Shown: positions 17,805-36,913 of the stretch, piece after piece
Layout of the letters: the number at the start of each line of letters is the position of its first letter
Numbering within the stretch: position 1 is the stretch's first letter
NCBI GenBank assembly: GCA_964425745.1
Contig: CAYRNW010000006.1
Location: 1,499-65,498 of the forward strand
Source of the DNA: an uncultured Eubacteriales bacterium
GTDB taxonomy: Bacteria; Bacillota; JAAYKD01
Direction: 5' to 3'
DNA length: 64,000 nucleotides
The notes under the pieces: model-generated
What the model saw: the letters and a program-made list of their open reading frames with translations, nothing else
What the model was told of the DNA's origin: nothing
Database searches by the model: none
Position numbers and translations under genes: made by a program

Positions 17805-17826
17805 CGACTTGTACGGGAGGAAAAAC

Positions 17827-18753: not shown

Positions 18754-21413
18754 GTGCTTCAGCAAAGATAAATCTTGGTGATGCCATCTTTAATGGTATT
18801 GAGGAGAATCCATTTCTGAATGAACTCTATGATAACATACTCTATAATTATGCGCTGAAAAAATTCGAACTGACATCCAGCAGGCAGTCCAGAGAGGTTG
18901 ATATTGCTTCAGCCCTTAGGTTTGCCGATTTGCTTTCTAAATCAACGTGTCCCCAAAATAAAGACAAACACAAAATGTGGGCGCAGGAAATAGTAGTACT
19001 CTTGCATGAGCTTTACCCGGAAAATGAAGACGTGAGTATGGTTGCCGGATCTGTCCTTTCATACACCGGGAATTATCAAGGACAAAAAATTATCAAGAGC
19101 AACTATCAAGCCCCTTCTGCACTTGAAAGAGTATTTACAGAATTTCAGAGTCATTATCTTACAATACCCGCTGAACCGGACTTGCGTTTTTTTGGCGCGC
19201 AGAAGAATGTATATGATCACTTGGACGACCCCTATTTCAGCTATTCTGGTCCGACTTCTATGGGTAAATCTTTTATTATGCGGATGTTCATGAAGGAGCA
19301 GGTCAAGCAAGGCGCAACTAAAAACTTTGCATTGATTGTTCCTACAAAAGCGTTGATAAATGAAAATAGAAGCCAAATTATTAATGATTTGAAAGAATAC
19401 CTGCAGCAGCGTAATTATCGTGTGATTACTGCTGCTGGCGATTTGGCTCTTGAGGGGCGACACAACTTTATTCTTGTGCTTACACCGGAAAGATTGTTGT
19501 ATCTTCTTATCAGCAAGCCGGATTTGCAGATCGATTATGTATTTATCGATGAAGCGCATAAACTATCCGGTAAAAACAGCAGAGGTCCTTTCTACTATAA
19601 AGTTGTTGATATGCTGATTAAGCGACAACATAAGCCGCATATTATTTTTGCATCACCTAATATTCCTAATCCTGAGGTGTATCTGAGGCTTCTTTCAGAA
19701 AAGACAAATGCTAATAATAGGTTGCGGTCGACATTTTCACCGGTTGCGCAAATCAAGTTTTTAATTGACCTAAATACCCATACTATCAGCGCATACAACG
19801 ATTACGCCGAGGAACTGATGCACCTTGCAACCATTCAGAAATCAGATGCTACGCTGATTGATTTTCTCAGAATGTTCGAAGTGGTTAATATAAAGCAAAT
19901 ACCGGAAAATCGCCAGCAGACTATTGTGTACTGTAATGGAAAAAGCAAAGCAATTGAATTGGCGCGTGAGTTTTCAAAATTTCTTCCAGAAAGCGGAGAT
20001 AAAGAGCTTGATGATTTATCACGGGATATCCGCAACGAGGTTCACGGGGAGTACTATTTAACAGAAGTAATAAAAAAGGGTGTTGCCTACCACATAGGGT
20101 ATTTACCTTCAGCTATTCGTATGCGAATCGAGGACATGTTCCGCAAGGGCAAGATAACCATCATGTTTTGTACAAGCACCCTTTTAGAAGGCGTTAACCT
20201 TCCTGCAGATAATCTATTCATCACCGATTTCAAGATAAATCGGTCAATCATGACGCCCGTTGACTTCAGAAATCTGATCGGCCGTGTTGGACGCATACGG
20301 TTCAACTTATATGGAAATGTGTTCTTTGTTGCTCAAGGCGACAAAATTACAGAGAAGGATTATGTTGAACTGTTGCAGGCTCCAATCCCGGATCAAAAGC
20401 TGTCAATTGAATCCGGAAAAACGGGCCTGCAGGAAGCCGAGAAAAAATACATAGTATCCAAGCTGCTTGCCGGTGATATTGAAATTGAAAAGCGTAATAC
20501 CAGCCAATCGGAAGAAGCACATACAATGATGCGGAAATTTGCGCTTATATTACTTCGTGATATTTTAGAAAACAGAAACAGCTTGGTAAGACGTGAATTT
20601 TCTGCTTTATTAACTACAGCGGATGAGAATAAAATTAGAGAGAATTTCCAAGAATCCGCTTCCCTGCTCGATGATGATATAAATATATCTGTGGACCAGG
20701 CACAAAACCTGTCCGCGGCTATTGAATTCGGTCTTAAGTACCCGGAACGTGTGGACGGGCATTTCGTTTATGATGATGTGCTTGCCTTCCTTGAGAAGCT
20801 GTGCAGAATTTTTAAATGGAAAAAGTATGAGTATACGTCTCTTGGAAAAGTTAGTGAAAATGGCCAGTTTGCATTGCTTCGCTGGTATGCAGTAATCCTT
20901 ATTCAGTGGATGGAAGGTACCGGTTTGAGCAGTATCATGAAAAAGGCCATTGAATACCGAGAGACACATCCTGATAATTTCTGGATCAACAAGTACCAGA
21001 AAACCCGATATAACGGTACAACAGAACATAAGAATATCGTCTTTGCAGATACCTTGGAGGTAATTGAGAATACGATCCTTTTTAGTATTTCCAATTATTT
21101 CCTTCGCTTTTCAAATGAGTATAAGCGTATACACCAACTCACGGAGTTTGAAAACAATTGGTACGAATTTGTTGAGTATGGCACGACAAACCCGCTAACA
21201 ATCCTGCTGCAACGAAACGGTTTTTCTCGCGAGGTTTCAACTTATATTAAGTCACATCAGGCTGATTTTGTCGTAACCATACCATCCGGTGAATTACGGC
21301 TAAGCCGAGCATTGCTATCATGCAGTAATATCAATGCCTGTAATGAGGCACGGGATATACAATATAATATGCCCGAATTATTTGTCGCAGATGGCTGCGA
21401 TATAGAAATATAG
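18750..21413 (+). CDS. hamB: Hachiman-like HamB DExH-box helicase
   Basis: Helicase motifs GPTSMGKSF (I), FIDEAHKL (II), and GRVGRIR (VI), with a long C-terminal extension. Translationally coupled to the upstream DUF1837-like gene. Confidence 0.65.
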   Translation: MSASAKINLGDAIFNGIEENPFLNELYDNILYNYALKKFELTSSRQSREVDIASALRFADLLSKSTCPQNKDKHKMWAQEIVVLLHELYPENEDVSMVAGSVLSYTGNYQGQKIIKSNYQAPSALERVFTEFQSHYLTIPAEPDLRFFGAQKNVYDHLDDPYFSYSGPTSMGKSFIMRMFMKEQVKQGATKNFALIVPTKALINENRSQIINDLKEYLQQRNYRVITAAGDLALEGRHNFILVLTPERLLYLLISKPDLQIDYVFIDEAHKLSGKNSRGPFYYKVVDMLIKRQHKPHIIFASPNIPNPEVYLRLLSEKTNANNRLRSTFSPVAQIKFLIDLNTHTISAYNDYAEELMHLATIQKSDATLIDFLRMFEVVNIKQIPENRQQTIVYCNGKSKAIELAREFSKFLPESGDKELDDLSRDIRNEVHGEYYLTEVIKKGVAYHIGYLPSAIRMRIEDMFRKGKITIMFCTSTLLEGVNLPADNLFITDFKINRSIMTPVDFRNLIGRVGRIRFNLYGNVFFVAQGDKITEKDYVELLQAPIPDQKLSIESGKTGLQEAEKKYIVSKLLAGDIEIEKRNTSQSEEAHTMMRKFALILLRDILENRNSLVRREFSALLTTADENKIRENFQESASLLDDDINISVDQAQNLSAAIEFGLKYPERVDGHFVYDDVLAFLEKLCRIFKWKKYEYTSLGKVSENGQFALLRWYAVILIQWMEGTGLSSIMKKAIEYRETHPDNFWINKYQKTRYNGTTEHKNIVFADTLEVIENTILFSISNYFLRFSNEYKRIHQLTEFENNWYEFVEYGTTNPLTILLQRNGFSREVSTYIKSHQADFVVTIPSGELRLSRALLSCSNINACNEARDIQYNMPELFVADGCDIEI

Positions 21414-21430: not shown

Positions 21431-24013
21431 ATGGATAAAGCATATCAATGGGTGCCATTTTATGAGGCACTCGCCGATAAATTGCTTACATACAGCGATA
21501 AACGGGATGAACTCTTTGCTTTAATGAAAAAGCTTTCATCGGAGCAGCCGCTGATGAAATATCTCCACTTCGAGCGTGAAGACTGGTGGGAACCCCGCCA
21601 TCATCAAATCGATCCGTTTTCTGTGATTGGAGTTATGAATCGCGGAACAACAGATGCAAACCGTATTGTCTTAGCCAAGGTACTCGCAAACGCATTTGAC
21701 ATACAGATTCCTTCGCCTACGCAGTTTGCGGGTATACCTGTACTCAATAACATGAACTCATTTTTTAATGGAACAAATGAATTATGGGAGCTGTTTTGCC
21801 TTGCAATAAAATCCGCTGAAACCGGTGAGTTTTCAGACAAATTTAAAAAAGCATTCGATGACGCCATTGCAGTATCTGGAAATGGACTGGCTTATATTAC
21901 GATGGGCTTGTATTGGATTCGGCCACATGTTTTTATGCCTCTTGATGGCAATTCGCGTGCTTATATTTCTACACATTTCGGTGTATCTGCACCAAGCGGA
22001 AACTGTAGTGGTGAAGAATACGTAACTTTTTTGAATACACTCAAAACGAAAATCCATGAGCAGGCGCCTGACCTGACATTACCTGAAATTTCGTATACTG
22101 CTTGGACGAAGAAGGATGCCAATTCGCTCGACGGTACAAGCACAACTACCGCAGTCGTTGATGAGAAACGGCAGCGGGCGGCATTTATACAATGGTATAC
22201 GAATAATGTTGGTTCGTCTAATTCTGCTAATACCATCGCGGTTGCTATCGGTAAAGCACGGCTTAAAAGCGGACGAGCAGTGTTTGCTATTGCTGATTTT
22301 AATGAACTTGATTCTGCGATCAAGAGCAGCGGCCTTGAAGGGTATTTTCAAGCCAGCGGTGGCGATTACTCAAAGATGGATATAGTTTTTGACATTGATC
22401 CAACTACCCAACGTGATGACTTGAAAAGTGGAATCAAGCACTATCTCAGTTTTCTTAAAAGCATAGGAGAATTAAGTTCATCAAGCGGAACAATTGTCCC
22501 GCCGAATATAGCATCACGGCAGACTGGCGGGGCAAAAATGGCAAAAAACATAATTCTCTATGGTACTCCTGGAACAGGAAAAACCTATAGTACAGTGCAG
22601 TATGCTGTTGCCATTATTGAGGAGAAGTCGATCGCGGAGGTAAAATCTGAAGATTACGGAGAAGTATTCAATCGTTACTTAAAATATAAAGATGACGGAC
22701 TGGTCGCTTTTACCACATTTCACCAATCGTTTGGCTACGAAGAATTTATTGAGGGTATACGCCCGGTCGTGTCTTCGGAGGAAAAAGCAGAATCGGTACG
22801 CGAAATTGAATACGAAGTACATGATGGAATTTTCAAGGCATTTTGCGATAAAGCTGGAACACCTATTGGCGGCGGAACAAGTGTAGACTTAGGAATTGGT
22901 AAAAGCCCTACCGTCTGGAAGGTTTCACTTGAAGGTACAGGTGACAATCCTACAAGAGCCGAATGTATGGAGAATAATCATATCCGCATCGGATGGGACA
23001 GCTATGGCGAAACCATATCTGATGCTACAGATTACAGCAAGGATGGAGGCAGAACCGTTCTCAACGCATTTTACAACAGGATGCAAATCGGCGATATTGT
23101 TATGTCTTGTTATTCCAGCAAAACAATAGACGCGATTGGTGTTATTACTGGCGAACCAGAATGGCACGATGAGTATCAGAACTACAAACGGTTGCGTAAT
23201 GTGAAATGGCTTGTAAAGGGTATTAACGAAGATATCGTCGATTTCAATGCCGGAAAAGCTATGACGCTTTCATCTGTATACAAGTTATCAGTTTCAGTGT
23301 CAGATGCATTGCAAATACTTAGGAAAGTGAAGCCAAGCCTATTCACACAAAAGGTAAAAATTCCAAACCGTGTATTTATCATTGATGAGATCAATCGAGG
23401 GAATATCTCAAAAATATTTGGTGAATTAATTACCCTAATCGAGCCGTCAAAGCGCATAGGAGCAAGCGAACAGCTACGCGCTCTTTTGCCATACTCGGGC
23501 CAAAATTTTGGTGTGCCCGATAACGTCTACATCATTGGCACCATGAACACCGCCGACCGCTCTATCGCGATGATAGACACCGCGTTGCGCCGTAGATTTG
23601 AATTTATCGAGATGCAACCTGATTCTGCTACGCTTAAAGATGTTCTTGTTGACGGTATAGATATTGCTGAGATGCTCGACACCATCAACAAGCGTATAAC
23701 CGTATTGCTCGACCGTGAGCACACCATAGGACATTCCTATTTACTGCCGCTTAAAACAGACCCGACGATTGAAAATCTTGCGGCGATTTTTGAAAACAGA
23801 ATAATCCCGCTTTTGCAAGAGTACTTCTACGACGATTACGAGAAGATTCAGCTTGTATTGGGTGACAATCAGAAGCCGGATGATAGCACTCGCTTTATCG
23901 TGAAAAAGACAGATGCTGTTAAGCTGTTTGGAAACGCGGACGTTGATTTCCCGGAGTATTATGAGGTTAACAGCGAAGCTTTCATGAGGATTGATGCCTA
24001 TGCGTTCCTGTAA
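21431..24013 (+). CDS. mcrB: McrB-family GTPase (type IV restriction) with long N-terminal extension including a PUA/EVE-like modified-base reader domain
   Basis: AAA+/GTPase motifs NIILYGTPGTGKTY, VFIIDEINRGNISKIFGE and IIGTMNTADRSIAMIDTALRRRFEF. The upstream segment VWKVSL..IRIGW..FYNRMQIGDIVMSCYS..IDAIGVITGEP is EVE-like. Confidence 0.85.
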   Translation: MDKAYQWVPFYEALADKLLTYSDKRDELFALMKKLSSEQPLMKYLHFEREDWWEPRHHQIDPFSVIGVMNRGTTDANRIVLAKVLANAFDIQIPSPTQFAGIPVLNNMNSFFNGTNELWELFCLAIKSAETGEFSDKFKKAFDDAIAVSGNGLAYITMGLYWIRPHVFMPLDGNSRAYISTHFGVSAPSGNCSGEEYVTFLNTLKTKIHEQAPDLTLPEISYTAWTKKDANSLDGTSTTTAVVDEKRQRAAFIQWYTNNVGSSNSANTIAVAIGKARLKSGRAVFAIADFNELDSAIKSSGLEGYFQASGGDYSKMDIVFDIDPTTQRDDLKSGIKHYLSFLKSIGELSSSSGTIVPPNIASRQTGGAKMAKNIILYGTPGTGKTYSTVQYAVAIIEEKSIAEVKSEDYGEVFNRYLKYKDDGLVAFTTFHQSFGYEEFIEGIRPVVSSEEKAESVREIEYEVHDGIFKAFCDKAGTPIGGGTSVDLGIGKSPTVWKVSLEGTGDNPTRAECMENNHIRIGWDSYGETISDATDYSKDGGRTVLNAFYNRMQIGDIVMSCYSSKTIDAIGVITGEPEWHDEYQNYKRLRNVKWLVKGINEDIVDFNAGKAMTLSSVYKLSVSVSDALQILRKVKPSLFTQKVKIPNRVFIIDEINRGNISKIFGELITLIEPSKRIGASEQLRALLPYSGQNFGVPDNVYIIGTMNTADRSIAMIDTALRRRFEFIEMQPDSATLKDVLVDGIDIAEMLDTINKRITVLLDREHTIGHSYLLPLKTDPTIENLAAIFENRIIPLLQEYFYDDYEKIQLVLGDNQKPDDSTRFIVKKTDAVKLFGNADVDFPEYYEVNSEAFMRIDAYAFL

Positions 24014-25277
24014 TAAAACCTTCACTATAACAGAATACGGTGGGTTTACGCGCGGCATAGCGTCTTACGGTTATCAGGCATTGCCGGAAAAAACATTTGA
24101 TGCGCTTGAAGCTTTTATCCTCGCCAACAATACTGATACGGGAACCGAGGCAGTCGAGCTGCTGTCTCTTTCTGTTCGCCGAGGCATTGGCAAGATTATC
24201 ACCGCCAGAAATTACGTCGGGCTGATAACGATGGCTGACGGTACTGTCATAGAGATTCTCCCTAAAGTTATGGGCGGCGATATTACCGAGGAAGAGACGA
24301 AGCGAATTTTTCTCGAGATGCTAAAAACGCTAAAGGACGTGACATTTAAAGACTTCAATGTTTCAAATCTTCATGCTGACAACCTGAGCCTTCTCGATAT
24401 TTTTATAAAAATGTTTCTCGACGAGGTCACTATTCTAACAAAGCAAGGAATAAAAGCGGCATATACACCCGTCGAAGCAAATGAACGGTTCTATAAAGGG
24501 AAGCTGCTGGCTTCACAGAATATTAAATATAATCTGGTTAACAAGGAACGATTTTTTGTTCGCTACGACGATTTCAATATAAACAGACCGGAGAACCGTC
24601 TGATCAAGTCCACACTACGTTTCCTGCGCAATACTTCAAATGACGGGCGTAACCGACAGAACGCAACCCGATTAATAAATTTCTTTGATGGTGTGGAATA
24701 TTCCAAAAACTATGATTTGGACTTTTCAAAGTGTATTGTCGACCGCAGCATGAGCCACTACGACAAGGCTCTTTCGTGGTGTCGCGTTTTCTTGCGAGGA
24801 AATAGCTTCACCGCCTTTGCAGGAAGCGAGGTTGCTCTTGCTCTTCTTTTTCCAATGGAAAAGGTGTTCGAGAGTTTTGTTGCTGCGAAGTTTCGCAAGC
24901 ACATTGGTAGTGGTGTTACCTTGCGGACACAGGATGCCAGATACAGTCTGTTTGATAGTCCGGCCCGAGCTTTTTCCCTTCGTCCTGACATTGTGTTAGA
25001 ATTTGACGGCCGTACAGTAGTTCTGGATACCAAATGGAAGCTGCTCTCAGACAATGCCAGAAACAGCGGTATTTCACAAACTGATATGTACCAGATGTAT
25101 GCTTACGGCAAAAAGTATGAAGCAGACAAAATTGTCTTGCTGTATCCCTATTCCGATGCTGTGCGCAAAACTGATATCAGGTATGCCTCAGATGACAATG
25201 TAAAGGTCGATGTTACCTTCATTGACCTTAAGAATGCGGATAACAGTATTTCGAAACTATTAGGGGAGGTGTGCTAA
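24000..25277 (+). CDS. mcrC: McrC-family nuclease subunit (PD-(D/E)xK)
   Basis: RPDIVLEFDGRTVVLDTKWK catalytic motif. Overlaps the mcrB 3' end. Start chosen at the ATG 9 nt after GAGGA (alternatives 23991 and 23994). Confidence 0.8.
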   Translation: MRSCNKTFTITEYGGFTRGIASYGYQALPEKTFDALEAFILANNTDTGTEAVELLSLSVRRGIGKIITARNYVGLITMADGTVIEILPKVMGGDITEEETKRIFLEMLKTLKDVTFKDFNVSNLHADNLSLLDIFIKMFLDEVTILTKQGIKAAYTPVEANERFYKGKLLASQNIKYNLVNKERFFVRYDDFNINRPENRLIKSTLRFLRNTSNDGRNRQNATRLINFFDGVEYSKNYDLDFSKCIVDRSMSHYDKALSWCRVFLRGNSFTAFAGSEVALALLFPMEKVFESFVAAKFRKHIGSGVTLRTQDARYSLFDSPARAFSLRPDIVLEFDGRTVVLDTKWKLLSDNARNSGISQTDMYQMYAYGKKYEADKIVLLYPYSDAVRKTDIRYASDDNVKVDVTFIDLKNADNSISKLLGEVC

Positions 25278-26308
25278 TGCCATTTACCATCGTCCGTCAG
25301 GACATAACAAAAATGAAAGTTGACGCTATAGTCAACGCTGCCAACACCGACCTGCAAATGGGCGGTGGGGTTTGTGGAGCTATCTTCAAAGCGGCGGGAG
25401 CGGCACAGCTTCAAGCTGCCTGTGATAAACTCTCCCCGATTAAAACGGGTGAGGCGGTTATTACATCAGGATTCGACCTGCCCGCTAAGTTTGTTATTCA
25501 CGCGGCAGGCCCCGTTTATAGATATCAGAATACCGAGCAGAGTGAAAAACTACTACGTTCCGCATACATGGAGTCGCTCCGGCTTGCCATCGAAAACAAC
25601 TGTGAAAGTATTGCGTTCCCATTGATTTCAAGCGGGATTTACGGATACCCAAAAGACGAAGCCCTTCAAGTGGCTACTGCTGCAATTCAAGATTTTCTCA
25701 TCAACAACGATATTGATATAACACTTGTAGTGTTTGATAAATCGGCATTTACTGTAAGCCGCGAGCTGCTCGGTGAAGTCGAAAGCTACATAGATGAGCA
25801 TTACGTTGATATACACCAAATAAAGCGTCGGAAGCTGCTTGATGTAGAACGCCAAGCCATATCCGAAGCTGATGAGCGTGCTAGTATACTCAACGAGCCT
25901 ATTCTTGAAGATATGCTCGCTCCTATTGGCGCTCCTGCCCCGCTTGATGATTTAGTTGGCAATCTTGATGAGCCATTCTCTCAGATGCTCCTGCGTCTGA
26001 TTGATGCCAAAGGAATGACGGATGTTGAAGTATACAAACGTGCCAACCTTGACCGAAAATTATTCTCTAAGATCAGAAGCAACAAAGGATATATGCCAAG
26101 CAAGCGCACAGCTATTGCTCTTGCTGTAGCGCTGAAGTTATCTCTCGACGAAACCGACGACCTCTTGGAACGAGCGGGCTATGCACTATCTCACGCCGTC
26201 AAATTCGATGTTATTGTGGAGTACTTCATCGCAAACGGTAAGTACGATGTTTTTGCGATCAATGAAGTGCTGTTTGAATACGACCAGCCGCTGTTGGGAG
26301 GGTGCTGA
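25277..26308 (+). CDS. Macro-domain (ADP-ribose binding/processing) protein fused to C-terminal XRE-like HTH domain
   Basis: Macro signature AIVNAANTDLQMGGGVCGAIF and ISSGIYGYP. C-terminal MTDVEVYKRANLDRKLFSKIRSN..SKRTAIALAVALKLSLDETDDLLERAGYAL is HTH_XRE-like. TAATG overlap with the mcrC stop. Confidence 0.75.
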   Translation: MPFTIVRQDITKMKVDAIVNAANTDLQMGGGVCGAIFKAAGAAQLQAACDKLSPIKTGEAVITSGFDLPAKFVIHAAGPVYRYQNTEQSEKLLRSAYMESLRLAIENNCESIAFPLISSGIYGYPKDEALQVATAAIQDFLINNDIDITLVVFDKSAFTVSRELLGEVESYIDEHYVDIHQIKRRKLLDVERQAISEADERASILNEPILEDMLAPIGAPAPLDDLVGNLDEPFSQMLLRLIDAKGMTDVEVYKRANLDRKLFSKIRSNKGYMPSKRTAIALAVALKLSLDETDDLLERAGYALSHAVKFDVIVEYFIANGKYDVFAINEVLFEYDQPLLGGC

Positions 26309-26310
26309 TT

Positions 26311-26766
26311 ATGGATTATGTTTATGAAATAGATTCACTAATTCAAAAAGCTACATTAGCAATTGGTAAACCAATTTTTAAGGACAAGTATGAAATCGTT
26401 GATAGAGGTTTACCGCATATTCCACCTACTCGATTGCCTGATGGGAAGATGGCAATCTACATGTTTTTGCTCGGTGACGAATTTCTAAAAATCGGAAAAG
26501 CTAATTATAGAAGTAATGCAAGATTCTGCAGTCAACATTATGGTTTGAATGCACCATCAACACTTGCAAAATCACTGCTTTCGGATAGTGAGATGCGCAG
26601 CTTAAACATTACTTCTTCAAATATAAAAAATTGGATTAAAACGAATTGCCGACGAATCGACATAATTATTGATGCAGACTTAGGTGTTTTTGCTTTGGAA
26701 TTGATTGAGGGGATAATGCATTATAAATATGAACCCAGATATGAGGGTTTTGCATCTCAAAGGTAA
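26311..26766 (+). CDS. Small GIY-YIG superfamily (T5orf172/MUG113-like) protein
   Basis: AIYMF-(10)-LKIGKA-NYRSNARF..QHYG resembles GIY..YIG..R of the T5orf172 domain. GGGAGGG SD 8 nt before ATG 26311. Begins 3 nt after the macro-HTH stop. Confidence 0.5.
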   Translation: MDYVYEIDSLIQKATLAIGKPIFKDKYEIVDRGLPHIPPTRLPDGKMAIYMFLLGDEFLKIGKANYRSNARFCSQHYGLNAPSTLAKSLLSDSEMRSLNITSSNIKNWIKTNCRRIDIIIDADLGVFALELIEGIMHYKYEPRYEGFASQR

Positions 26767-26769
26767 TTT

Positions 26770-26786
26770 GTCGCTTCTGAAGCGAC
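26770..26786 (+). promoter_or_regulatory. Perfect hairpin GTCGCTTC-t-GAAGCGAC between GIY-YIG gene and vWA gene (weak terminator/processing site, no U-tract)
   Basis: 8-bp inverted repeat read directly. No T-run follows. Confidence 0.3.
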
Positions 26787-26845
26787 CGCCGGTCTCAAGT
26801 AAAGTAGTATTCTAAGATTACAATAAATCTTAGGAGGCTACCAAA

Positions 26846-27499
26846 ATGAAAAAGGGATTAACTGAACTGGTATTCATACTCGACAAAAGTGGCTCAATGA
26901 GCGGACTGGAAGCTGACACTATTGGTGGTTACAATTCAATGCTCGCAAAGCAGAAGGCAGTAGATGGTGAGTGCTACATTACAACGGTGTTGTTTGATAA
27001 CAACTATGAGCTACTCCATGACCGTATTGACATTAAAGCAGTCAGCCCGATTACTGACAAAGAATATCAGGTTGGCGGATCGACAGCACTTCTTGATGCA
27101 ATCGGCAGAACGATTCACAAAATTGGTAACGCTCAAAAGCACACTGCCGAAGATTACCGCGCCGAAAAGGTAATGTTTGTAATTATCACAGATGGCGAGG
27201 AAAACTCTAGTCGTGAATATACTGCCGAAAAGATCAAAGCACAGATTGAGCGGCAAAAAGAAAAGTATGGTTGGGAGTTTATCTTCCTTGGGGCTAATAT
27301 CGATGCGGTTCAGACCGCCGGGAGGTATGGAATTGCTCCTGACAGGGCAATTGACTATCTAGCTGATAGCGAAGGTACGGAACTGAACTTTAAGGTAATG
27401 GCAAGTGCTGTGGCGACATTTCGCGAGTCGGGAACGGTTGACGAGACTTGCTTTGAGGAAATCCGCAAGGATGTGAAGCGTCGAGGAGGTCGTAAATAA
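26846..27499 (+). CDS. von Willebrand factor type A (vWA) domain protein
   Basis: MIDAS motif VFILDKSGSMSG at the N-terminus. 217 aa. TAGGAGG SD. Confidence 0.8.
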   Translation: MKKGLTELVFILDKSGSMSGLEADTIGGYNSMLAKQKAVDGECYITTVLFDNNYELLHDRIDIKAVSPITDKEYQVGGSTALLDAIGRTIHKIGNAQKHTAEDYRAEKVMFVIITDGEENSSREYTAEKIKAQIERQKEKYGWEFIFLGANIDAVQTAGRYGIAPDRAIDYLADSEGTELNFKVMASAVATFRESGTVDETCFEEIRKDVKRRGGRK

Positions 27500-28350
27500 T
27501 GCTCGGAGCGATTATAGGAGATATCGTAGGCTCGGTCTACGAATGGCATAACATTAAAACAAAAGACTTCCCGCTGTTCCGCGACGACTGCTTTTTCACG
27601 GATGACACCGTGATGACCATTGCTACAGCAGACGCTCTAATGAGCGGCGTTAAAGCCGACGATTTCATTAATGCCTATAAAAAGTGGGGGCGATTCTACC
27701 CAGATGCCGGGTACGGTGGTCGCTTCGGCAGTTGGATACATTCTAATGACCGTAAACCCTACAACTCTTGGGGTAATGGTTCGGCGATGAGAGTATCACC
27801 TTGCGCTTGGGTGATGAATTGCGGATTCTATGGGCGTACAGGTTGTTGGCCATCAAACGGTTGGGAATGTGTAACAAAATCTGCTGAGGTGACGCATAAC
27901 CACCCTGAAGGAGTCAAAGGCGCACAAGCTACCGCAGTAGCGATATTTTTGAGCCGGTTCTACGCCGGAGGTCACGCCTTCGATTATTGCCAGCCGTGGT
28001 CGGTTGAAGAATTGAAAGATGAAATAAAAAAACTGATAGAATCTAATTTTGGATATGATCTATCCCGGACGCTTGACGAAATTCGTCCAATTTACCGCTT
28101 CAATGAAAGCTGTCAGGATACGGTACCACAGGCGATTATTGCTTTCCTTGAAAGTATGGACTTTGAGGATGCAATCCGAAATGCTATCTCCCTCGGAGGT
28201 GACAGCGACACGCTTGCTGCTATTACCGGTAGCATTGCAGAAGCCGCCTATGGTGTGCCAGATTGGATAAGGGACAAGGCTTTGAGTTATCTGGACGCAC
28301 CGTTGAGAGATGTCTATAATCGGTGGACATCATACATAGAGAACAATTAA
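27499..28350 (+). CDS. ADP-ribosylglycohydrolase (ARH/DraG family)
   Basis: N-terminal GAIIGDIVGSVYEW, GNGSAMRVSP, and C-terminal GGDSDTLAAITGSIAEAAYG, all ARH family hallmarks. TAATG overlap with the vWA gene. Confidence 0.85.
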   Translation: MLGAIIGDIVGSVYEWHNIKTKDFPLFRDDCFFTDDTVMTIATADALMSGVKADDFINAYKKWGRFYPDAGYGGRFGSWIHSNDRKPYNSWGNGSAMRVSPCAWVMNCGFYGRTGCWPSNGWECVTKSAEVTHNHPEGVKGAQATAVAIFLSRFYAGGHAFDYCQPWSVEELKDEIKKLIESNFGYDLSRTLDEIRPIYRFNESCQDTVPQAIIAFLESMDFEDAIRNAISLGGDSDTLAAITGSIAEAAYGVPDWIRDKALSYLDAPLRDVYNRWTSYIENN

Positions 28351-28420: not shown

Positions 28421-28514
28421 TTGACATATTCCCGCGAACGAGCAAAAAACGTTGACCTGTTTCCGCGAACAGATAATACCCATAAAAACCATGCTCGACC
28501 TATTCCCGCGAACG
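28421..28514. repeat. Three direct repeats of a 20-bp unit TTGAC(A/C)TNTTYCCGCGAAC(G/A)
   Basis: Copies at 28421-28440, 28452-28471 and 28495-28514, spaced 31 and 43 bp. Confidence 0.7.
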
Positions 28515-28722
28515 TGCAAAATGAAAAATACAGACCAGACATCGGGATGAGCCTATCGTTCCATGTTGAGACGGTAGTCTGGATGTCAAGGGTGGTGAAG
28601 TAGAGCAAAAAGGTGCTGATAATCGCTGAAAAAGAACCATTTTGAGTGGAAATTCATGAAAAATATTGCATGGTTTCCGAGTAAGTGGGAACACATCCAA
28701 TTTAGTGATTTTTGTTTGACAG

Positions 28723-28820: not shown

Positions 28821-28873
28821 CGTTTTTGTGAGAAGAATGTTATACAAAAAAGGTCTGATTGAGGGGTTATAGC

Positions 28874-29944
28874 ATGATTGATGAACAGAATATCCTTTTT
28901 AGCAAAGAAAACACGATTGAAAAACTAATGTCGAACAATCGCAAGGGGAATGAGGACTTTAATGAAACGATGTTATCCACACTACTTCTAATGGGGTGGG
29001 TGCTAATTTTACTGCCGTTGTTGGCGGTTCCCTTTAGCAACACGAAGGAGGGTGTTATCCCTGCATATCTGCTAGCATTCGCAGCATTTCTTGCTTTGTT
29101 TCTATTATATAAAGTTCCAAGCATGAAAAAGTATACTCTAGTGGGATTGTATCTCGGCTTCTCGGTTTTGTTCCTTTTAGGGATTTACCTTAGCGTTATT
29201 CACTCACCCAATATGCGTGCGACCGTTTTACTTGGTGGTTTCATTCTCATGCCACTTAGTTTTATTGACCGACTACATCGGAAAATACTGTTTCTAGCTC
29301 TCTGGTTAGGGGTTCATACCTTATTGGCTTACTATCTGAAACCATTATTGGTACTTGATGATACGATTAATTGCCTTATGGCAGCTATTCTAGGATGTTT
29401 TCTCGGCAACACATTGATGCGGGTGCGGTTGGAAAGCCTTGAGGCAAGACGCTTACTCATTATAGAAAAAGGAACCGATGAGTTAACAGGGTTACCTAAT
29501 CGACGCAAACTATATGAGACTCTGACGATGTTGGAGGGTTCTGATGTTGAAAAGCCTACTGGAATCATGATGCTCGATATTGATCACTTTAAAGACTTCA
29601 ACGATCAATACGGACATGTTCCTGGTGATAGATACTTGAGGTTCTTTGCCGAAGTATTAACCAATTTCACAAAGGTTTTTCGTTGGCATTTTTATCGTTT
29701 TGGCGGTGAGGAATTCGTCGCAATAGCTTATGGTTATGATAAAGATGAGTTATACTCCATAGCTGAAAGTCTTCGTGTGGCTGTTCAAAGAGCAGACATG
29801 GAAGGGTATAGCACTACCGTTAGTATCGGTGTTGCATACTGCGGCGAAGAGCAAGTTGCAAATTACGAAAAGGTAATAGAGCGAGCGGACAATGCCGCGT
29901 ATACAGCAAAACGCTCGGGGCGGAACATTGTGTGCATGGAGTAA
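28874..29944 (+). CDS. Membrane-anchored GGDEF-domain diguanylate cyclase
   Basis: 5-6 N-terminal TM helices. GGEEF active site (RFGGEEFV). GAGGGG SD 7 nt before ATG 28874. Confidence 0.85.
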   Translation: MIDEQNILFSKENTIEKLMSNNRKGNEDFNETMLSTLLLMGWVLILLPLLAVPFSNTKEGVIPAYLLAFAAFLALFLLYKVPSMKKYTLVGLYLGFSVLFLLGIYLSVIHSPNMRATVLLGGFILMPLSFIDRLHRKILFLALWLGVHTLLAYYLKPLLVLDDTINCLMAAILGCFLGNTLMRVRLESLEARRLLIIEKGTDELTGLPNRRKLYETLTMLEGSDVEKPTGIMMLDIDHFKDFNDQYGHVPGDRYLRFFAEVLTNFTKVFRWHFYRFGGEEFVAIAYGYDKDELYSIAESLRVAVQRADMEGYSTTVSIGVAYCGEEQVANYEKVIERADNAAYTAKRSGRNIVCME

Positions 29945-30036
29945 ATTCGATAGGAGATAAGGAAGCGAAAATCGTCTTCCAACATATTCACAATGTTGAT
30001 TATTTGTATTAAAAGAGGTATAGAAAGAGGTAAAAT

Positions 30037-30696
30037 ATGTCAATTGTTACTGTAGATTTCGATGGAACTTTATATAAGCATAATTCTGTAAAGGCGATGC
30101 TTAAAGCCGGAAAGAAAGTATTTACTTTAAAGCAATGGAGTTTAATAGCCATAAATTTTCTTTCCGGTTGTGTAAATAGAGATAAAGGAGATAAAATAGA
30201 CCTTCGAGTTATTTTACTAAAATCGTTTTTTTACCAAATGAAAGGAAAAAGCGTTGAAGAAATGCATGCGTTTTTTGGGGCCATACTCAATACGGATCGT
30301 CAGAATATTAATTATAACTTGGTGTTAAGAATAAAGAATCATTTGGAAATGGGAGATCGCGTGATCATTTTATCGGGAGCCTTGCAACCTTTTCTTGAAG
30401 AAGTTATACGGCAGCTGGGAATTCGGGCAGATGCAATTGGGACCTCTTTACTTTATGATGAGAGTGGAATCTGTACAGGTGAAATCGGTAGAATAAACCG
30501 TGGAACTGATAAAGTAGAAAAATTGAAGCTTTGGATAGAGGAAAATGATGCCAGCGGAGAACCGCTTTGGGCATATGCAGATAGCGAATCAGATATTCCT
30601 CTACTGGAATTTGCAGATAAGGCAGTTGTTGTTAACCCGACAGAAACAATGAAAAAAATTGCTGAATCAAAGGGATGGGAAATTTTTATTAACTAG
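30037..30696 (+). CDS. HAD-superfamily hydrolase (HAD-IB/phosphoserine phosphatase-like)
   Basis: Motif I VDFDGTL at the N-terminus. 219 aa. Confidence 0.7.
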   Translation: MSIVTVDFDGTLYKHNSVKAMLKAGKKVFTLKQWSLIAINFLSGCVNRDKGDKIDLRVILLKSFFYQMKGKSVEEMHAFFGAILNTDRQNINYNLVLRIKNHLEMGDRVIILSGALQPFLEEVIRQLGIRADAIGTSLLYDESGICTGEIGRINRGTDKVEKLKLWIEENDASGEPLWAYADSESDIPLLEFADKAVVVNPTETMKKIAESKGWEIFIN

Positions 30697-30728
30697 GCAC
30701 AAAACTCTTGACAGACCCGACAGACTCT

Positions 30729-32420
30729 TTATGCTCGTTTTGATCTAAAAGTCGCAATAATCAATGCCACTAAAGTAATTGCTGCCAGGACTAGGCTGAT
30801 GCTTAGTGTTATGCTTCCGACAGTTATAAAATCAGTTTTTTCCAGACCAGTTAAACTCAATCCAACGAATGTTCCTGCAATTACAATACTTAAAGATAGT
30901 AAAATTAGGCTGATTGTTAACCGCGTAAAAGCCCTGTCAAATTTCAGCACATACCGTTCTGCCTCTTCCATTTTAAATTGTAATGTAAAGTTATCCTGTT
31001 CTATCTTCCCAAGAAAATTTAGCAAAACAGACGGGAGCTTTCTAACTAGATTACCATAATCCATTGCCCCACTCAAGATTTCCTTGCTGATTTTCTCGGG
31101 GGAAATTAAATTGAAAATTAATTTACCTGCGATTGGTTCAGCAATTTCCAGAATATTTAGATCTGGATCAAGTTTCTCAACTAACCCTTCCAAAGTAATA
31201 AGGGATTTAGCAAGCATAGTAAATTCCCCTGGGATTTTAATATTGTAAGTATATGCTAAATCGAAGATATCGTTGAAAATTTCACCGATATTTATTTCAC
31301 TCAATGGGAGAGACAAGACTTGATCTCTTAATCGGTCAATATCTTTTTCTAGTTTCCTCATATTGATACTTTCTGATGTTGCATCAAGTTCAATAATTGC
31401 TTGTATGATTAGTTTACTATTTTTTAAAGTTATTCCGACCAGCATTTTCAGGAATTGGTTTTTTCCATGAGGGCTTAATTGCCCTACCATACCTAAATCT
31501 AAAAAAGCTATGGTATTATTCTCAAGCACCATTATATTACCGGGATGAGGGTCCCCGTGAAAGAAACCATCTCTCAATATCTGATATAAAATAGAGTTAG
31601 CTAAGTTTTTTGCTATTATTGTCCTATTTAACCCTAATTGATCTAACGCTTCAAAATTCTTTAACGAGGTTCCTTTGATTTCTTCCATTGTTAGAACACG
31701 ACTCGTAGTATGAATCCAGCTAATGTTCGGAACAATTACATTAGCATCATCCTTAAAATTCACTTTAAACTTCTCAGCATTTTCTCCTTCCAATCTGAAG
31801 TCTAATTCATTTGTTATGGTGGTCTCAAACTCTTCCGCCATTTTGCTGAAGCTATATAGTTTTCCAAACCTAGTTCGATTATCGACAAAATCAGCTAAAT
31901 CTTTTAGTATCCCCAAATCAAGTTCGATATTTTTCTCTATATTTGGCCTTTGAACTTTTACTACCACATCTTTCCCCGATAATAATTTAGCACGATGAAC
32001 TTGCCCAATTGAAGCTGCAGCTATAGGCTCCGCAATAAATTCTCTAAATATGTTTTCAAGTTTATCTCCCAATTCATATTCTATTACTTTCTTTACATCA
32101 CTAATTGGAAATGGGGCGACCGCATCTTGTAGTTTTTCCATCTCGTGTACAATTTCGCGAGGTAATAAATCCGGTCTAGTGCTCATAATTTGTCCGATTT
32201 TTATAAATGTCGGTCCCAACTCTTCGAAGGATAATCTAAGTCTTTCACCTACTGATGATTTTATAAGTTCCCTTTCATTATATTCTTTGGGTTCCTCCTC
32301 AATTTTAAGATGTTTTAAGATACCCAATTTATCCATTAAAGCGCTAAATCCATGGTTTGCAAAAGTCCTAACAATCTGCTTCGACCTCTTAAGCTTTCTA
32401 TATCTGCTAACCGCCATCAT
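30729..32420 (-). CDS. ABC1/UbiB family atypical protein kinase with C-terminal TM helices
   Basis: AASIGQVHRAKL and FFHGDPHPGNIMV kinase-like motifs. 563 aa. Confidence 0.85.
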   Translation of the reverse strand: MMAVSRYRKLKRSKQIVRTFANHGFSALMDKLGILKHLKIEEEPKEYNERELIKSSVGERLRLSFEELGPTFIKIGQIMSTRPDLLPREIVHEMEKLQDAVAPFPISDVKKVIEYELGDKLENIFREFIAEPIAAASIGQVHRAKLLSGKDVVVKVQRPNIEKNIELDLGILKDLADFVDNRTRFGKLYSFSKMAEEFETTITNELDFRLEGENAEKFKVNFKDDANVIVPNISWIHTTSRVLTMEEIKGTSLKNFEALDQLGLNRTIIAKNLANSILYQILRDGFFHGDPHPGNIMVLENNTIAFLDLGMVGQLSPHGKNQFLKMLVGITLKNSKLIIQAIIELDATSESINMRKLEKDIDRLRDQVLSLPLSEINIGEIFNDIFDLAYTYNIKIPGEFTMLAKSLITLEGLVEKLDPDLNILEIAEPIAGKLIFNLISPEKISKEILSGAMDYGNLVRKLPSVLLNFLGKIEQDNFTLQFKMEEAERYVLKFDRAFTRLTISLILLSLSIVIAGTFVGLSLTGLEKTDFITVGSITLSISLVLAAITLVALIIATFRSKRA

Positions 32421-32453
32421 TAATCACCACACAATCTAATCTCATTCTCTGTT

Positions 32454-32500
32454 AAAAAAAGCAGATATAGATTGATAGAAGATCTTTCATCTATATCTGC
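32454..32500 (-). terminator. Rho-independent terminator downstream of degV (12-bp stem GCAGATATAGAT/ATCTATATCTGC followed by U7 on minus strand)
   Basis: Inverted repeat 32461-32472 / 32489-32500, with A7 at 32454-32460 on the plus strand. Confidence 0.7.
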
Positions 32501-32557
32501 TTCAGCGTTTTAAAGCTAAATAATCCTATTGAAATTTCAGTGAACCAGACAGCAGAG

Positions 32558-33424
32558 TTACCTTTCTTTTCCTAGAAAAAACAAACCCACTAGTCCCGGC
32601 CCGGTATGGGTTCCAATAATTGGCCCCAGAATATTTATAACTACGTCATGGGGTGTTGTCTCGCTTAGAATCAGTGATTTTAGATACTCCGCATCTTCTA
32701 GGCAATCTCCATGGGCAATAAATATCCGCTGTTCTTCTGGGTTAACTGCCCGAGTTTTATATTCATCAAATAAAGCTCTAATTGACTTCTTTCTACCTCT
32801 GATTTTTTTTGCAACGATTAGACTCCCATCATTAGAAACAATTAAAACCGGTTTAACTTCTAACAACCCCCCTATAGCTGCGCTGGCTGTTGAAATGCGC
32901 CCCCCTCTCTTTAGATGCTCCAGGTTATCTATAGTAAACCAATGATTTACTTTTAGTTTGTTAAACTCAATCCAGTCTACGATTTCTTGTTTAGATTTTC
33001 CTTGTTTTAACATTTCGCATGCATAAGATACCAATAAGCCCTGACCAATCGAAGCGCTTTTCGAATCGATTACAGTTATATCCGCTTCTGGATTCATTTC
33101 CATAAGCTCATTTCTAGCCAGAACCGAACCATTAAAGGTTTCACTTAGAGCAGATGAAAAACCTATATAGATAATTGAATCTCCTTTTGAAACAAACCTA
33201 CTAAATTCATTAACAAAGGTAAAAGCAGTAATTTGTGCAGTTACCGGCATACCGCCCTTTCGAATTTTATCGTAAAAATCTTTATGGCTTAAGGATTTTC
33301 CAAAATCATCTGTGTAGTTAATCCCATTTAGTTCAAAGGTAAATGGGATAATATGTATATTGTTTTGGTAGATATATTCGACGGGTAAATCACAATTCGA
33401 ATCAGTAACTATAACTATTCCCAT
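32558..33424 (-). CDS. DegV family fatty-acid-binding protein
   Basis: N-terminal GIVIVTDSNCDLP, a DegV hallmark. AGGAG SD 8 nt before ATG 33424. Confidence 0.85.
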   Translation of the reverse strand: MGIVIVTDSNCDLPVEYIYQNNIHIIPFTFELNGINYTDDFGKSLSHKDFYDKIRKGGMPVTAQITAFTFVNEFSRFVSKGDSIIYIGFSSALSETFNGSVLARNELMEMNPEADITVIDSKSASIGQGLLVSYACEMLKQGKSKQEIVDWIEFNKLKVNHWFTIDNLEHLKRGGRISTASAAIGGLLEVKPVLIVSNDGSLIVAKKIRGRKKSIRALFDEYKTRAVNPEEQRIFIAHGDCLEDAEYLKSLILSETTPHDVVINILGPIIGTHTGPGLVGLFFLGKER

Positions 33425-33470
33425 TTCAACCACTCCTAAAATAAGGGATTTTAACTAACCAATCAAATGT

Positions 33471-33821
33471 CTATTTTCTGAGCTCACTAATATCCTTTTT
33501 TGTCGCTATTTCTTTCTCTTTTAAAACATCGGTTAAAACTTCTCTTATAATCCTTTTTAAGTCCTCTTTCTCTATAATATCCTCTTTGCGAGCAATATCT
33601 TTTGCTTCCAGTGCTTCTAAAATTTCATCCTTGACCATTTTCTTAAAATCTTCTTGTTGCTCTTCGCCTTTTTTGACTAAGTCATTAACCAGGTCTTTAG
33701 CGTCTTTCCTAGCGACTTCCCCTTTATTCACCAATTCGTCAACTATATCTTCGATTTTTTCTCTTGAGTAAGAGAATAACCCTAACCCTAAATTGAGCGA
33801 CTTTTCGATTAATCCGGACAT
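33471..33821 (-). CDS. Phasin-like protein (PHA granule-associated family)
   Basis: GLIEKSLNLGLGLFSYSREKIEDIVDELVNKGE matches the phasin family pattern. GTGAGGT SD before ATG 33821. Confidence 0.5.
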   Translation of the reverse strand: MSGLIEKSLNLGLGLFSYSREKIEDIVDELVNKGEVARKDAKDLVNDLVKKGEEQQEDFKKMVKDEILEALEAKDIARKEDIIEKEDLKRIIREVLTDVLKEKEIATKKDISELRK

Positions 33822-33846
33822 AATAAAATACCTCACTTTCATATAT

Positions 33847-34422: not shown

Positions 34423-34696
34423 TATAACTTCACCTCACAATTCGGTCATTCGTCCGATTTAATTTTATTGTATTTTGATGATTTTGTCAATAACAAAAAT
34501 TATGATTTCTAGTTCAGATTGCTGTAATCGTATCACCTATTATAATTGTCAGCGAAAGCGAATATTGGCGCCGTTGTAGTTGCAAATATCAGTTCAGTTG
34601 TGAACTTGATACTGGTATTTTTTAGTGTAGCATAATCTCGCGTTTCAGACTCTACTTTTAAGGAGCACTCCAAGATTGCTGTTCTAGTTGAGCCAA

Positions 34697-34733
34697 TAAA
34701 AACCCCTCGAGCAAGAACTCGAGGGGTTTTTAT
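34697..34733. terminator. Bidirectional rho-independent terminator (CCCCTCGAG-loop-CTCGAGGGG flanked by A5/T5)
   Basis: Read directly. Lies immediately 3' of the minus-strand hsp20 gene. Confidence 0.8.
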
Positions 34734-34754
34734 TACCTTATCTAACAATCTACC

Positions 34755-36908: not shown

Positions 36909-36913
36909 TCCCG

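Follow-up and report, generated by a model that had tools for sequence, protein, structure and literature searches.

A stretch of 64,000 nucleotides from an uncultured Eubacteriales bacterium (GenBank assembly GCA_964425745.1, contig CAYRNW010000006.1, positions 1,499 to 65,498 of the forward strand; the whole stretch is called the window below) carries a small cassette of genes centred on ADP-ribose. In order of transcription it consists of a gene for a macro-domain protein with a C-terminal helix-turn-helix (macro-HTH), an inserted gene (p154), a structured leader, a gene for a stand-alone vWA protein, and a gene for an ARH3-like ADP-ribosylhydrolase (ARH) that overlaps the end of the vWA gene (Table 1). 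From the comparisons described below we conclude that macro-HTH and vWA are the core of the cassette, that ARH is a genuine but facultative partner, and that an HD_4 phosphohydrolase is an alternative partner.

Table 1. Features of the cassette and of the remainder of the window (ORF, open reading frame; MIDAS, metal-ion-dependent adhesion site)
Feature	Coordinates	Strand	Remarks
Macro-HTH protein, 345 aa	25277..26308	+	likely start ATG 25277; ORF tool lists GTG 25271
p154, 154 aa	26311..26766	+	facultative insert between macro-HTH and the vWA leader; ORF tool start GTG 26302
Leader element 1, palindrome/hairpin GTCGC-N7-GCGAC	26770..26786	+	17 nt, GTCGCTTC-T-GAAGCGAC
Leader element 2, fold-back hairpin	26804..26841	+	3′ arm holds the vWA Shine-Dalgarno AGGAGG (26832-26837)
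−10-like box TATTCT	26808..26813	+	TATCCT in most relatives, TGn often preceding
Stand-alone vWA, 217 aa	26846..27499	+	complete MIDAS D13, S15, S17, T80, D116
ARH3-like ADP-ribosylhydrolase, 283 aa	27499..28350	+	facultative third gene, coupled to vWA
Primase/VapE, DNA polymerase A, Enc34-type single-stranded DNA-binding protein, DUF2800	1661-8803		common to PV036457.1
Type I restriction-modification (hsdM, hsdS, hsdR)	11479-17804	+	upstream of cassette
Hachiman (HamA/HamB)	17809-21413	+	upstream of cassette
McrB-like gene	21431-24013	+	860 aa
McrC	23991-25277	+	directly before macro-HTH gene
Two large serine recombinases	35361-38895		common to PV036457.1
Endolysin	39278-39970		common to PV036457.1
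Terminase, portal, protease, capsid and tail genes	57032-58642 down to ~45 kb		common to PV036457.1
ParB	61503-62747		common to PV036457.1

The genes of the cassette and their recurrence

The macro-HTH protein begins with a macro domain (residues ~5-170) and ends in an XRE/C-protein-like HTH that bears two additional helices; the linker joining them is variable. The macro domain (PF01661, 142.8 bits in Pfam) is of the MacroD type, its best sequence matches in the PDB being DR_2288, MACROD2 and YmdB. The ADP-ribose (ADPr)-binding motifs NAAN, GGG and SSGIYGYP (G-[IV]-[YF]-G) are conserved across 57 macro-HTH orthologues, as is the HTH. The domain scores below the NCBIfam equivalog cut-offs (168.5 vs 200), so that no specific enzyme name applies. 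The last 120 residues of the protein give only a weak HTH_3 match (E = 0.0057, below cut-off), and a sequence search of the PDB with a profile of the C-terminal domain returned no match. An AlphaFold2 (AF2) model of this domain (mean predicted local distance difference test score, pLDDT, 81.5) shows a five-helix XRE fold followed by two long helices, and its Foldseek neighbours are C.Esp1396I, C.BclI, C.AhdI, DdrO, ClgR, SinR and CapH (probability ~1.0, E 1e-2 to 1e-1). Homologues of macro-HTH have been labelled 'XRE-family regulator' independently by several metagenome sources.

The stop codon of the McrC gene overlaps the likely start of macro-HTH as TAATG (25275-25279), the same type of junction that joins vWA and ARH, and the conserved Shine-Dalgarno sequence of macro-HTH falls within the 3′-end of McrC. 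Because of this overlap and the position of the Shine-Dalgarno sequence, macro-HTH appears to be co-translated with whatever defence operon precedes it.

The identity of the vWA protein is secured by its fold and its MIDAS residues despite Pfam scores that stay below the cut-offs (VWA PF00092, 21.2 bits vs 23.8; vWA-TerF-like, 20.4 bits vs 29.4). The AF2 model is of high quality (pLDDT 94.1, predicted template modelling score 0.91), and Foldseek aligns it at a probability of 1.0 and E ~3e-9 with TRAP, the integrin alphaX and alphaM I-domains, ANTXR2 and ArnB. The MIDAS pattern DxSxS...T...D is formed by five residues that are invariant in 79 homologues, and the MIDAS-bearing vWA gene reported in an earlier note on this DNA, which was made from the sequence alone, is thereby borne out. 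The protein matches phrog_7371 (2e-57) and belongs to a very large family: homologues fall into at least 8,000 clusters at 90% identity, the best 120 of these at least 8,000 matches being 85-98% identical and from many Bacillota families, and an exhaustive search (E ≤ 1e-3) yielded 16,335 family representatives at 50% identity. Virulent phages contribute 221 records.

Several members of the vWA family are fused to enzymes. Protein P0400 is a single ARH-vWA polypeptide, with residues 2-268 being 51% identical to the window ARH and residues 275-487 being 48% identical to the window vWA; its domain order is the reverse of the gene order in the operon, so that read-through does not account for it. 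P0469 joins HD_4 to vWA, and further fusions (P0434, P0455, P0381) include a kinase-like-vWA protein (P0434), a vWA-retropepsin-like aspartyl protease and a truncated vWA-methyltransferase. The existence elsewhere of ARH-vWA and HD_4-vWA fusions argues that the link between vWA and ARH is functional. Coupled or fused as it is to a range of enzymes, the vWA protein looks like a general adaptor, and we propose that it binds a target or partner in an Mg2+-dependent manner. The TerY-P triad (vWA, PP2C and Ser/Thr kinase) and YegL resemble the cassette in having a small stand-alone MIDAS vWA, in the 'YegL' COG type under which sequence sources name it, in the weak vWA-TerF-like match and in the kinase-like fusion P0434. 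As an identity for the cassette the triad was rejected because no PP2C or kinase genes flank vWA and PADLOC gives no TerY match.

The ARH protein matches PF03747 over residues 1-253 (120.9 bits vs a cut-off of 26.2) and phrog_6572 (6e-54). Residues E15, D34/D35/T36 and D234/D236/T237 align with E41, D77/D78 and D314/D316/T317 of ARH3 (2qty), and also with MJ1187, and the catalytic and binuclear-metal residues are at least 95% conserved in 18 orthologues, so the full family signatures claimed for this gene are indeed present. ARH and ARH3/ADPRHL2 thus share a Pfam family, the catalytic Glu in GD-x-VG-x-x-YE, the DDT motif and the D-x-DT metal site; the overall similarity is remote (E = 6e-9), the protein is shorter (283 vs ~350 aa), and its origin is bacterial or phage. 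Because the ARH3 catalytic set and the ADPr-binding motifs of the macro domain are conserved, both enzymes look active, as far as sequence can tell. Two named hydrolases were considered and rejected: DraG (TIGR02662, 49.5 bits vs a cut-off of 337), for which the locus survey found no conserved nif or DraT neighbours that would place the pair in a nitrogenase-type housekeeping context, and the Tri1-type ADP-ribosylarginine hydrolase immunity protein (NF041672, 35.3 bits vs 490). The window ARH carries a Cys/Trp/Gly-rich insertion of ~20 residues (VMNCGFYGRTGCWPSNGWEC, residues ~105-124, 27811-27870) that is not conserved in orthologues.

At the vWA/ARH junction, the stop codon TAA (27497-27499) and the start codon ATG (27499-27501) share one base, giving TAATG. 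The translational coupling that had been proposed from this overlap is supported by its recurrence, since 18 of the 67 genome loci and 9 of the 10 viral ones show an overlap of 1 or 4 nt. The recurrent coupling, the correlated divergence of the two proteins (r = 0.65) and the fusion of the same two subfamilies uphold vWA-ARH as a functional pair.

The recurrence of the cassette was surveyed in 80 loci from GTDB genomes (vWA 62-96% identity) with our own ORF calling and clustering; 68 of the loci had enough upstream DNA, and 67 enough downstream DNA, to be counted. Of the 68, 61 have a macro gene upstream of vWA in the same orientation, immediately next to it in 44 cases, and an intact ARH gene lies directly downstream in 18 of the 67 (27%), always with the 1- or 4-nt overlap. 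The pairwise identities of the proteins across loci correlate between vWA and macro (r = 0.86) as they do between vWA and ARH, which indicates that the genes of the cassette are inherited together. No neighbour other than macro and vWA is conserved across the 80 loci; the remaining flanking genes are nearly all singletons, and those that recur include McrBC-like genes, HsdR, GmrSD, ResIII with a methyltransferase, and serine recombinases. Among close ARH relatives in IMG/VR, macro-vWA precedes in 9 of 10 loci, and in one locus (L087) a close relative follows McrBC without macro-vWA. A search with the C-terminal domain of macro-HTH gave matches that lie on viral contigs in 27 of 27 cases, with vWA next in all that have enough downstream sequence. 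The assignment of the upstream macro gene to the same unit as vWA-ARH therefore stands (61 of 68 loci, r = 0.86). Of the ADP-ribose-centred cluster proposed in the earlier note, the grouping of macro, vWA and ARH is retained and the placing of the vWA-ARH pair at its core is not, because only 27% of genome loci have ARH, which is often decayed and whose place HD_4 can take.

Truncated remnants of ARH were found in three loci by count and in five by inspection. The decay seen in L013, L015, L017, L009 and L014 takes the form of N-terminal remnants of 12-14% or of split genes, and a recurrent ARH variant that lacks roughly residues 150-217 occurs on IMG/VR contigs (L090-L095, L107-L112, L124-L125). 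These remnants, split genes and deletion variants suggest that the optional eraser ARH has been lost or remodelled repeatedly.

No writer of ADP-ribosylation is linked to the cassette. Pfam scans of the window ORFs of at least 150 aa, other than those at 3987-4604 and a doubtful one at 41664-42176, gave no match to an ADP-ribosyltransferase (ART), SIR2 or TIR domain, and no writer recurs as a conserved neighbour in about 120 related loci; neither DarT (DUF4433) nor any other ART was found in the scanned ORFs or the related loci. The absence of a linked writer, as the earlier note had it, holds on this wider base. At one locus (L034) a sirtuin-like gene (FFGGAGVSTESNIPDFRS; cluster c54, 2 members), its motif spotted by eye, lies tail-to-tail with vWA with a 9-nt overlap; it is the sole possible NAD-using enzyme seen beside the cassette, and may be a housekeeping CobB. 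PADLOC reports no system or candidate match for macro, p154, vWA or ARH.

The leader of the vWA gene and the insertion site

About 75 loci share the same architecture in the 85 nt 5′ of the vWA start (window 26762-26848, with the equivalent stretch in L001, L004-L082 and L086-L098): a palindrome, a spacer that varies in sequence and is constant in length, a T-A-n-n-n-T box, and a hairpin bearing the Shine-Dalgarno sequence. In 72 sequences the palindrome has five (nearly) invariant stem pairs and a sixth that varies, and its spacing from the TAT box is free of insertions and deletions; RNAfold folds the window copy into 7 bp with a 3-nt loop. The palindrome occurs once per locus, always 5′ of vWA, and it is absent from L003, which is also without macro-HTH. 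Within the box, positions T47 and A48 of alignment A1 are invariant and T52 is at least 90% conserved, these being the T-A-n-n-n-T positions of a −10 hexamer; a consensus promoter scan of the leader found no promoter and no −35 match.

The second element folds in the window into a minimum free energy hairpin of 15 bp, and the whole window leader has a z-score of −3.6 against shuffled sequences. RNAalifold applied to a MAFFT alignment recovered hairpin 1 only; since that alignment is out of register in hairpin 2, the latter was assessed by folding each sequence separately and by supplying the structure by hand. At least four of five Shine-Dalgarno bases are paired in 57 of 72 orthologous leaders, and the mean folding energy of the leaders is −15.4 kcal/mol, compared with −8.6 kcal/mol when the 5′ arm is shuffled. 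The main helix shows compensatory changes at 8 of 11 pairs, many by way of G-U, and this covariation exceeds that of 500 out of 500 shuffles and of every slid control.

Several familiar identities for the leader were rejected. Rfam 15 contains no family overlapping the elements at 26770-26841, which removes known riboswitches such as the NAD+ classes; a chance-level match to snoZ30 at 26838-26904 (19.5 bits vs a gathering threshold of 50, E = 2.3) touches the last four bases and the vWA start. The palindrome is followed by no T-run and no terminator was found there by a terminator scan, so that it is not an intrinsic terminator. A canonical sigma-70 promoter was set aside because there is no −35 element, only the −10-like T-A-n-n-n-T being left, and a repeated operator or autoregulatory site because the palindrome is present in single copy with none upstream of macro. 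The hairpin without a U-tract that had been described at this position is real; the part assigned to it, of separating vWA-ARH from the genes before it, is not sustained, as it belongs to the conserved regulatory leader of vWA.

The palindrome is a candidate operator of macro-HTH, which probably regulates the vWA-ARH pair, or else a protein-binding RNA hairpin. The T-A-n-n-n-T box may be the −10 element of a −35-less internal promoter for vWA-ARH, and the centre of the palindrome would then lie near −42, about 42 bp upstream of the predicted transcription start, where C-proteins and class II activators also sit. The controller (C) proteins of restriction-modification systems recognise palindromic C-boxes placed immediately before a weak promoter, and three of them (C.Esp1396I, C.BclI, C.AhdI) are among the nearest structures to the HTH; the HTH here differs in being fused to a macro domain, and its binding, promoter and transcript ends are predicted. 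Because the 5′ arm of the hairpin that hides the Shine-Dalgarno sequence lies upstream of the predicted start, vWA-ARH would not be translated from read-through transcripts, only from those begun at the internal promoter. The transposase gene of IS10 is governed by a fold-back inhibition of this kind, in which a 5′ arm pairs with the ribosome-binding site in read-through transcripts only, and the leader may by analogy work in the same way. Alternatively, both hairpins may act as RNA in one bicistronic mRNA. The leader is a clean candidate for a new cis-regulatory element, be it an operator with fold-back inhibition or an RNA switch.

The stretch from the macro stop codon to the palindrome (window 26308-26770; 9204-9920 in L097) is an insertion hot spot, in which 17 loci carry unrelated genes on the same strand, among them p154, an FMN reductase and proteins of 133-587 aa. 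The 154-aa gene of the window has no match in Pfam (even at E ≤ 10), PHROGs, NCBIfam or PADLOC and is present in six loci only (cluster 5 of the locus survey); the GIY-YIG label once given to it is thus unsupported, and the gene is an occasional insert. R. cellulolyticum H10 has the FMN reductase in the position of p154. Where such genes split macro from vWA, the leader travels with vWA. Two loci (L006 and L023) retain the 3′-end of p154 without the rest of the gene, and in L006 the left half of the palindrome is duplicated; these remnants and the duplication suggest recombination at this site.

Phage carriage, proposed function and alternatives

The window is collinear overall with the 64,355-bp Heliusvirales phage PV036457.1 from human faeces, and both of its ends almost meet on the map of that phage, so that its source looks from these comparisons like a near-complete temperate phage genome, circularly permuted or episomal, and not like a chromosomal island. 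What had been taken for a defence island of chromosomal type is the accessory arm of a nearly complete Heliusvirales-like temperate phage of Clostridia, transcribed away from the replication module. The macro-p154-vWA stretch (window 25262-27498) is 84% identical to PV036457.1 in DNA sequence. The homology ends exactly at the vWA stop codon, where a 197-aa HD_4 phosphohydrolase stands in the place of ARH, and it picks up again at window 28423-28593 (78% identity) although the adjoining genes differ. The cassette is phage-borne in every IMG/VR locus as well as in this complete Heliusvirales genome.

The reading that we favour, with somewhat less than even confidence, is that of a mobile, self-regulated and inducible eraser cassette directed against ADP-ribosylation by the ART of a foreign writer; since the cassette has no writer of its own, it would act on the ADP-ribosylation of another. 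Macro-HTH would be expressed along with the upstream defence genes, and its macro domain would bind, and possibly hydrolyse, ADP-ribose or an ADP-ribosyl adduct, making the protein a candidate ADP-ribose sensor or regulator and the first eraser of the cassette. Its XRE/C-protein-like HTH would bind the invariant palindrome 5′ of vWA. With the vWA ribosome-binding site hidden by the fold-back hairpin, vWA-ARH would stay silent in read-through transcripts and be expressed solely from a −35-less promoter of its own, which the regulator bound at the palindrome would control. The MIDAS metal site of vWA would then hold the modified target or the offending toxin, and the co-translated ARH3-like hydrolase, perhaps in physical complex with vWA, would strip the ADP-ribose. 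In relatives the partner hydrolase would be absent, replaced by an HD_4 pyrophosphohydrolase, or fused to vWA.

Two parts of this scheme carry estimates of their own. ADP-ribose and ADP-ribosyl adducts are the product common to NADase-type immunity and ART attack. That macro-HTH is a transcription factor which reads them through its macro domain as a ligand sensor, and so switches on a vWA-based effector or eraser operon from a fold-back-insulated promoter, is doubtful, if still a possibility to be taken seriously; were it true, it would amount to an ADP-ribose-sensing circuit not recognised before, spread across temperate phages of many gut and anaerobic-digester Clostridia (85-98% protein identity). 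That the cassette serves the lysogen, inducibly protecting phage and host as one unit from foreign ARTs such as those of superinfecting phages, is a tentative choice. We lean towards it because macro-HTH is coupled to lysogen-protecting defence genes, because a sensor-regulated, insulated promoter suits an inducible response, and because Iyer et al. (2022) predicted very similar eraser-only systems as host counter-measures to viral ARTs. Of the two functions guessed at in the earlier note, a guard against phage ARTs or a signalling system with an external writer, either may apply.

A number of observations weigh against such an eraser cassette. In the macro domain, Cys and Phe (GGGVCGAIF) replace the Asp and His of MacroD once proposed as catalytic, and the domain may be an enzyme or only a sensor. 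ARH is missing from ~70% of genome loci and is often decayed, so that its de-ADP-ribosylation cannot be the central function, and what vWA does where it lacks a hydrolase partner is left unexplained. More distant vWA homologues (~33% identity) are found in replication modules of virulent or large phages, by themselves and without an ADP-ribose enzyme close by. The internal promoter is read from three conserved bases, where the consensus scan found none, and hairpin 1 could be an RNA element instead of an operator. The setting of the cassette among ordinary chromosomal genes in R. cellulolyticum H10 is a further weak point, and a counter-defence locus run by an Aca-like repressor could have the same architecture.

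That last possibility, a phage counter-defence role, is almost as likely as use in the lysogen, if in itself rather unlikely. On this reading, orphan antitoxin-like erasers (macro and ARH, with HD_4 in relatives) undo host defence toxins such as DarT-type DNA ARTs, other ART toxins or toxSAS pyrophosphokinases, the vWA protein is the toxin-binding half in the manner of the DarG C-terminal domain, and the HTH is an Aca-like repressor that limits expression. The carriage of the cassette by phages in all IMG/VR loci and in a complete Heliusvirales genome, the membership of vWA and ARH in phage protein families, and the abundance of vWA among virulent phages are in keeping with it, and the eraser-binder fusions P0400 and P0469 resemble the DarG architecture. 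HD_4 is the fold of the small alarmone hydrolases that neutralise toxSAS toxins, and by analogy the HD_4 partner may do likewise. Orphan erasers are proven phage counter-defences, the NADAR protein AdfN countering DarTG1 (PMC11825919); the DarG3 antitoxin is ARH-like (PMC13069673), and a DarG2-like macro protein is reported as a counter-defence in chimalliviruses (PMC13309987). Set against this are a ligand-sensor regulator and an insulated inducible promoter, odd for genes needed immediately on entry, the coupling of macro-HTH to genes that protect a lysogen, a macro domain of the MacroD type and not of the TARG1/DarG type that removes thymidine-linked ADP-ribose, and the chromosomal copy in R. 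cellulolyticum H10. The chance-neighbour and DraG-like readings, which take ARH for a moron with no relation to the vWA gene before it, or for a housekeeping regulator like DraG, and see no system at all, are largely excluded and very improbable. The stop of homology to the closest phage exactly at the vWA stop codon, as though ARH were a swappable cassette, and the ARH relative of L087 that follows McrBC without macro-vWA speak for them; the overlap junction, on the other hand, is kept over a divergence of 50-96%, vWA and ARH evolve in a correlated manner, the same two subfamilies occur fused in one protein, the DraG and Tri1 equivalogs are missed widely (49.5 vs 337 and 35 vs 490 bits), and neither DraT nor nif genes were seen as conserved neighbours.

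ARH3-type enzymes cleave 1''-O-glycosidic ADPr linkages and O-acetyl-ADP-ribose, a family property that would suit a cassette in which macro, ARH and HD_4 hydrolyse small immune nucleotide messengers and not macromolecular adducts, with vWA sequestering or presenting the ligand through its MIDAS metal. Candidate ligands are the Thoeris messengers glycocyclic ADP-ribose (gcADPR) and histidine-ADP-ribose (His-ADPR), free or O-acyl ADP-ribose, and (p)ppApp/(p)ppGpp, HD_4 enzymes being known to work on alarmone nucleotides. Iyer et al. argued that phage Macro, NADAR and Nudix proteins serve mainly to counter soluble ADPr derivatives (PMC9503650, sections 3.4 and 3.7.4); the same authors assign to ADP-ribosylglycohydrolase (ARG) domains a preference for macromolecular adducts (PMC9503650). 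The fusion of a protein-binding vWA to enzymes as diverse as a kinase-like domain and an Asp protease suggests that the target is a protein, the loci showed no SLOG, NADAR or Nudix partner of the cassette, and the degradation of messengers is improbable overall. An equally small chance is given to a circuit in which vWA is itself the effector, arresting growth or sequestering proteins: the hairpin would hold vWA off, macro-HTH would switch it on when ADP-ribose rises through NADase-type immunity or ART attack, and ARH or HD_4 would merely reset or temper the response, with abortive infection or a lysis-lysogeny decision as the outcome. Here vWA is the constant downstream gene and ARH is dispensable, the translation of vWA is guarded unusually tightly, and regulators of the XRE/C-protein type often run phage switches and toxin-containing operons. 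Against an effector role, we know of no toxic activity of stand-alone MIDAS vWA domains, virulent phages carry the family within replication modules, which would ill suit a suicide effector, and the hydrolase fusions suggest an adaptor over an effector.

For the favoured eraser cassette, the closest precedent is a computational one. Eraser-only, ARG-centric systems were predicted by Iyer, Burroughs, Anand, de Souza and Aravind in 2022 (Viruses 14:1977; PMC9503650, section 3.8), with an HTH sensor regulator, a vWA chaperone, an HD phosphatase, Macro and restriction endonucleases, and with a role against viral ARTs. The eraser-only composition that the earlier note called unusual had thus already been predicted. 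The cassette shares with those systems an ARG without a coupled ART or sirtuin, a one-component HTH regulator with an ADPr-type sensor, the vWA chaperone, an alternative alarmone-type HD phosphatase, an accessory Macro, adjacent restriction-type effectors, and the variable gain and loss of modules. It differs in that its core is macro-HTH with vWA, the ARG being optional (18 of 67), whereas ARG is the core there; in that its sensor is a macro domain, where Nudix or WYL, functionally analogous and of other families, serve there; and in its distribution, Bacillota and temperate phages here and actinobacteria, planctomycetes and proteobacteria there. No rhodanese-phosphatase, ARPP or TY-chaperone partners were seen in our loci, and no leader was described for the predicted systems. 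DarTG and the orphan antitoxins (the DarG2 macro, the ARH-like DarG3 and the NADAR protein AdfN) are similar in using ADP-ribosylation erasers as neutralisers, and DarG in its eraser-plus-binder architecture, which the ARH-vWA and HD_4-vWA fusions recall; phage carriage of an orphan eraser has been established by experiment for AdfN (PMC11825919). The cassette has no DarT or other ART linked to it in the scanned ORFs and related loci, its macro domain is MacroD-type and not TARG1/DarG-type, and DarTG is without a counterpart of the vWA protein, the regulator or the leader.

Literature searches turned up no account of a macro-HTH/vWA cassette or its leader, of macro-vWA or macro-HTH, or of a phage vWA counter-defence, and none of the cassette in the Heliusvirales paper. 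The macro sensor on a regulator, the conserved leader and the carriage by Heliusvirales phages appear to be new. The cassette is compact (two to three genes and a leader of ~80-85 nt), abundant and directly testable, and it moves between distant Clostridia and resides in a phage order prevalent in the human gut. Phage-encoded ARTs and ART- or NADase-based bacterial immunity are both common; to our knowledge there is almost no experimental work on the dedicated reversal of ADP-ribosylation written by an enemy. The cassette offers a tractable model for asking whether a macro domain can serve as the sensor of a transcription factor, what stand-alone MIDAS vWA proteins do in phage-host conflict and why they are repeatedly coupled or fused to the erasers ARH and HD_4, and whether eraser-only systems shield lysogens from viral ARTs or phages from host ART toxins.

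Other genes of the window

Some of the remaining genes call for brief comment. In the McrB-like protein, the match to the AAA_5/McrB GTPase is confined to the C-terminal third, and the N-terminal region (~1-620) has only weak PDC-S02 matches at 529-602. Host-like cargo occupies 28859-35342, between the accessory arm and the integrases, and encodes a GGDEF diguanylate cyclase with an N-terminal membrane region, a HAD hydrolase, an ABC1/UbiB kinase, DegV, a TetR regulator and Hsp20; a GGDEF homologue adjoins the cassette in three further loci (L007, L041, L081). The portal and terminase genes enclose an insertion read from the opposite strand, a MarR regulator with an MFS transporter (55217-56930). 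Beside ParB lies a full-length S-adenosylmethionine synthetase (62737-63930), which fits the methionine-metabolism auxiliary genes reported for Heliusvirales (PMC11283538). Just 3′ of ARH, three direct repeats of the form GAC-n-T-n-TT-y-CCGCGAAC (window 28423-28521) are spaced at 31 and 43 nt; they may form an array of operators or iterons, or belong to a promoter region.

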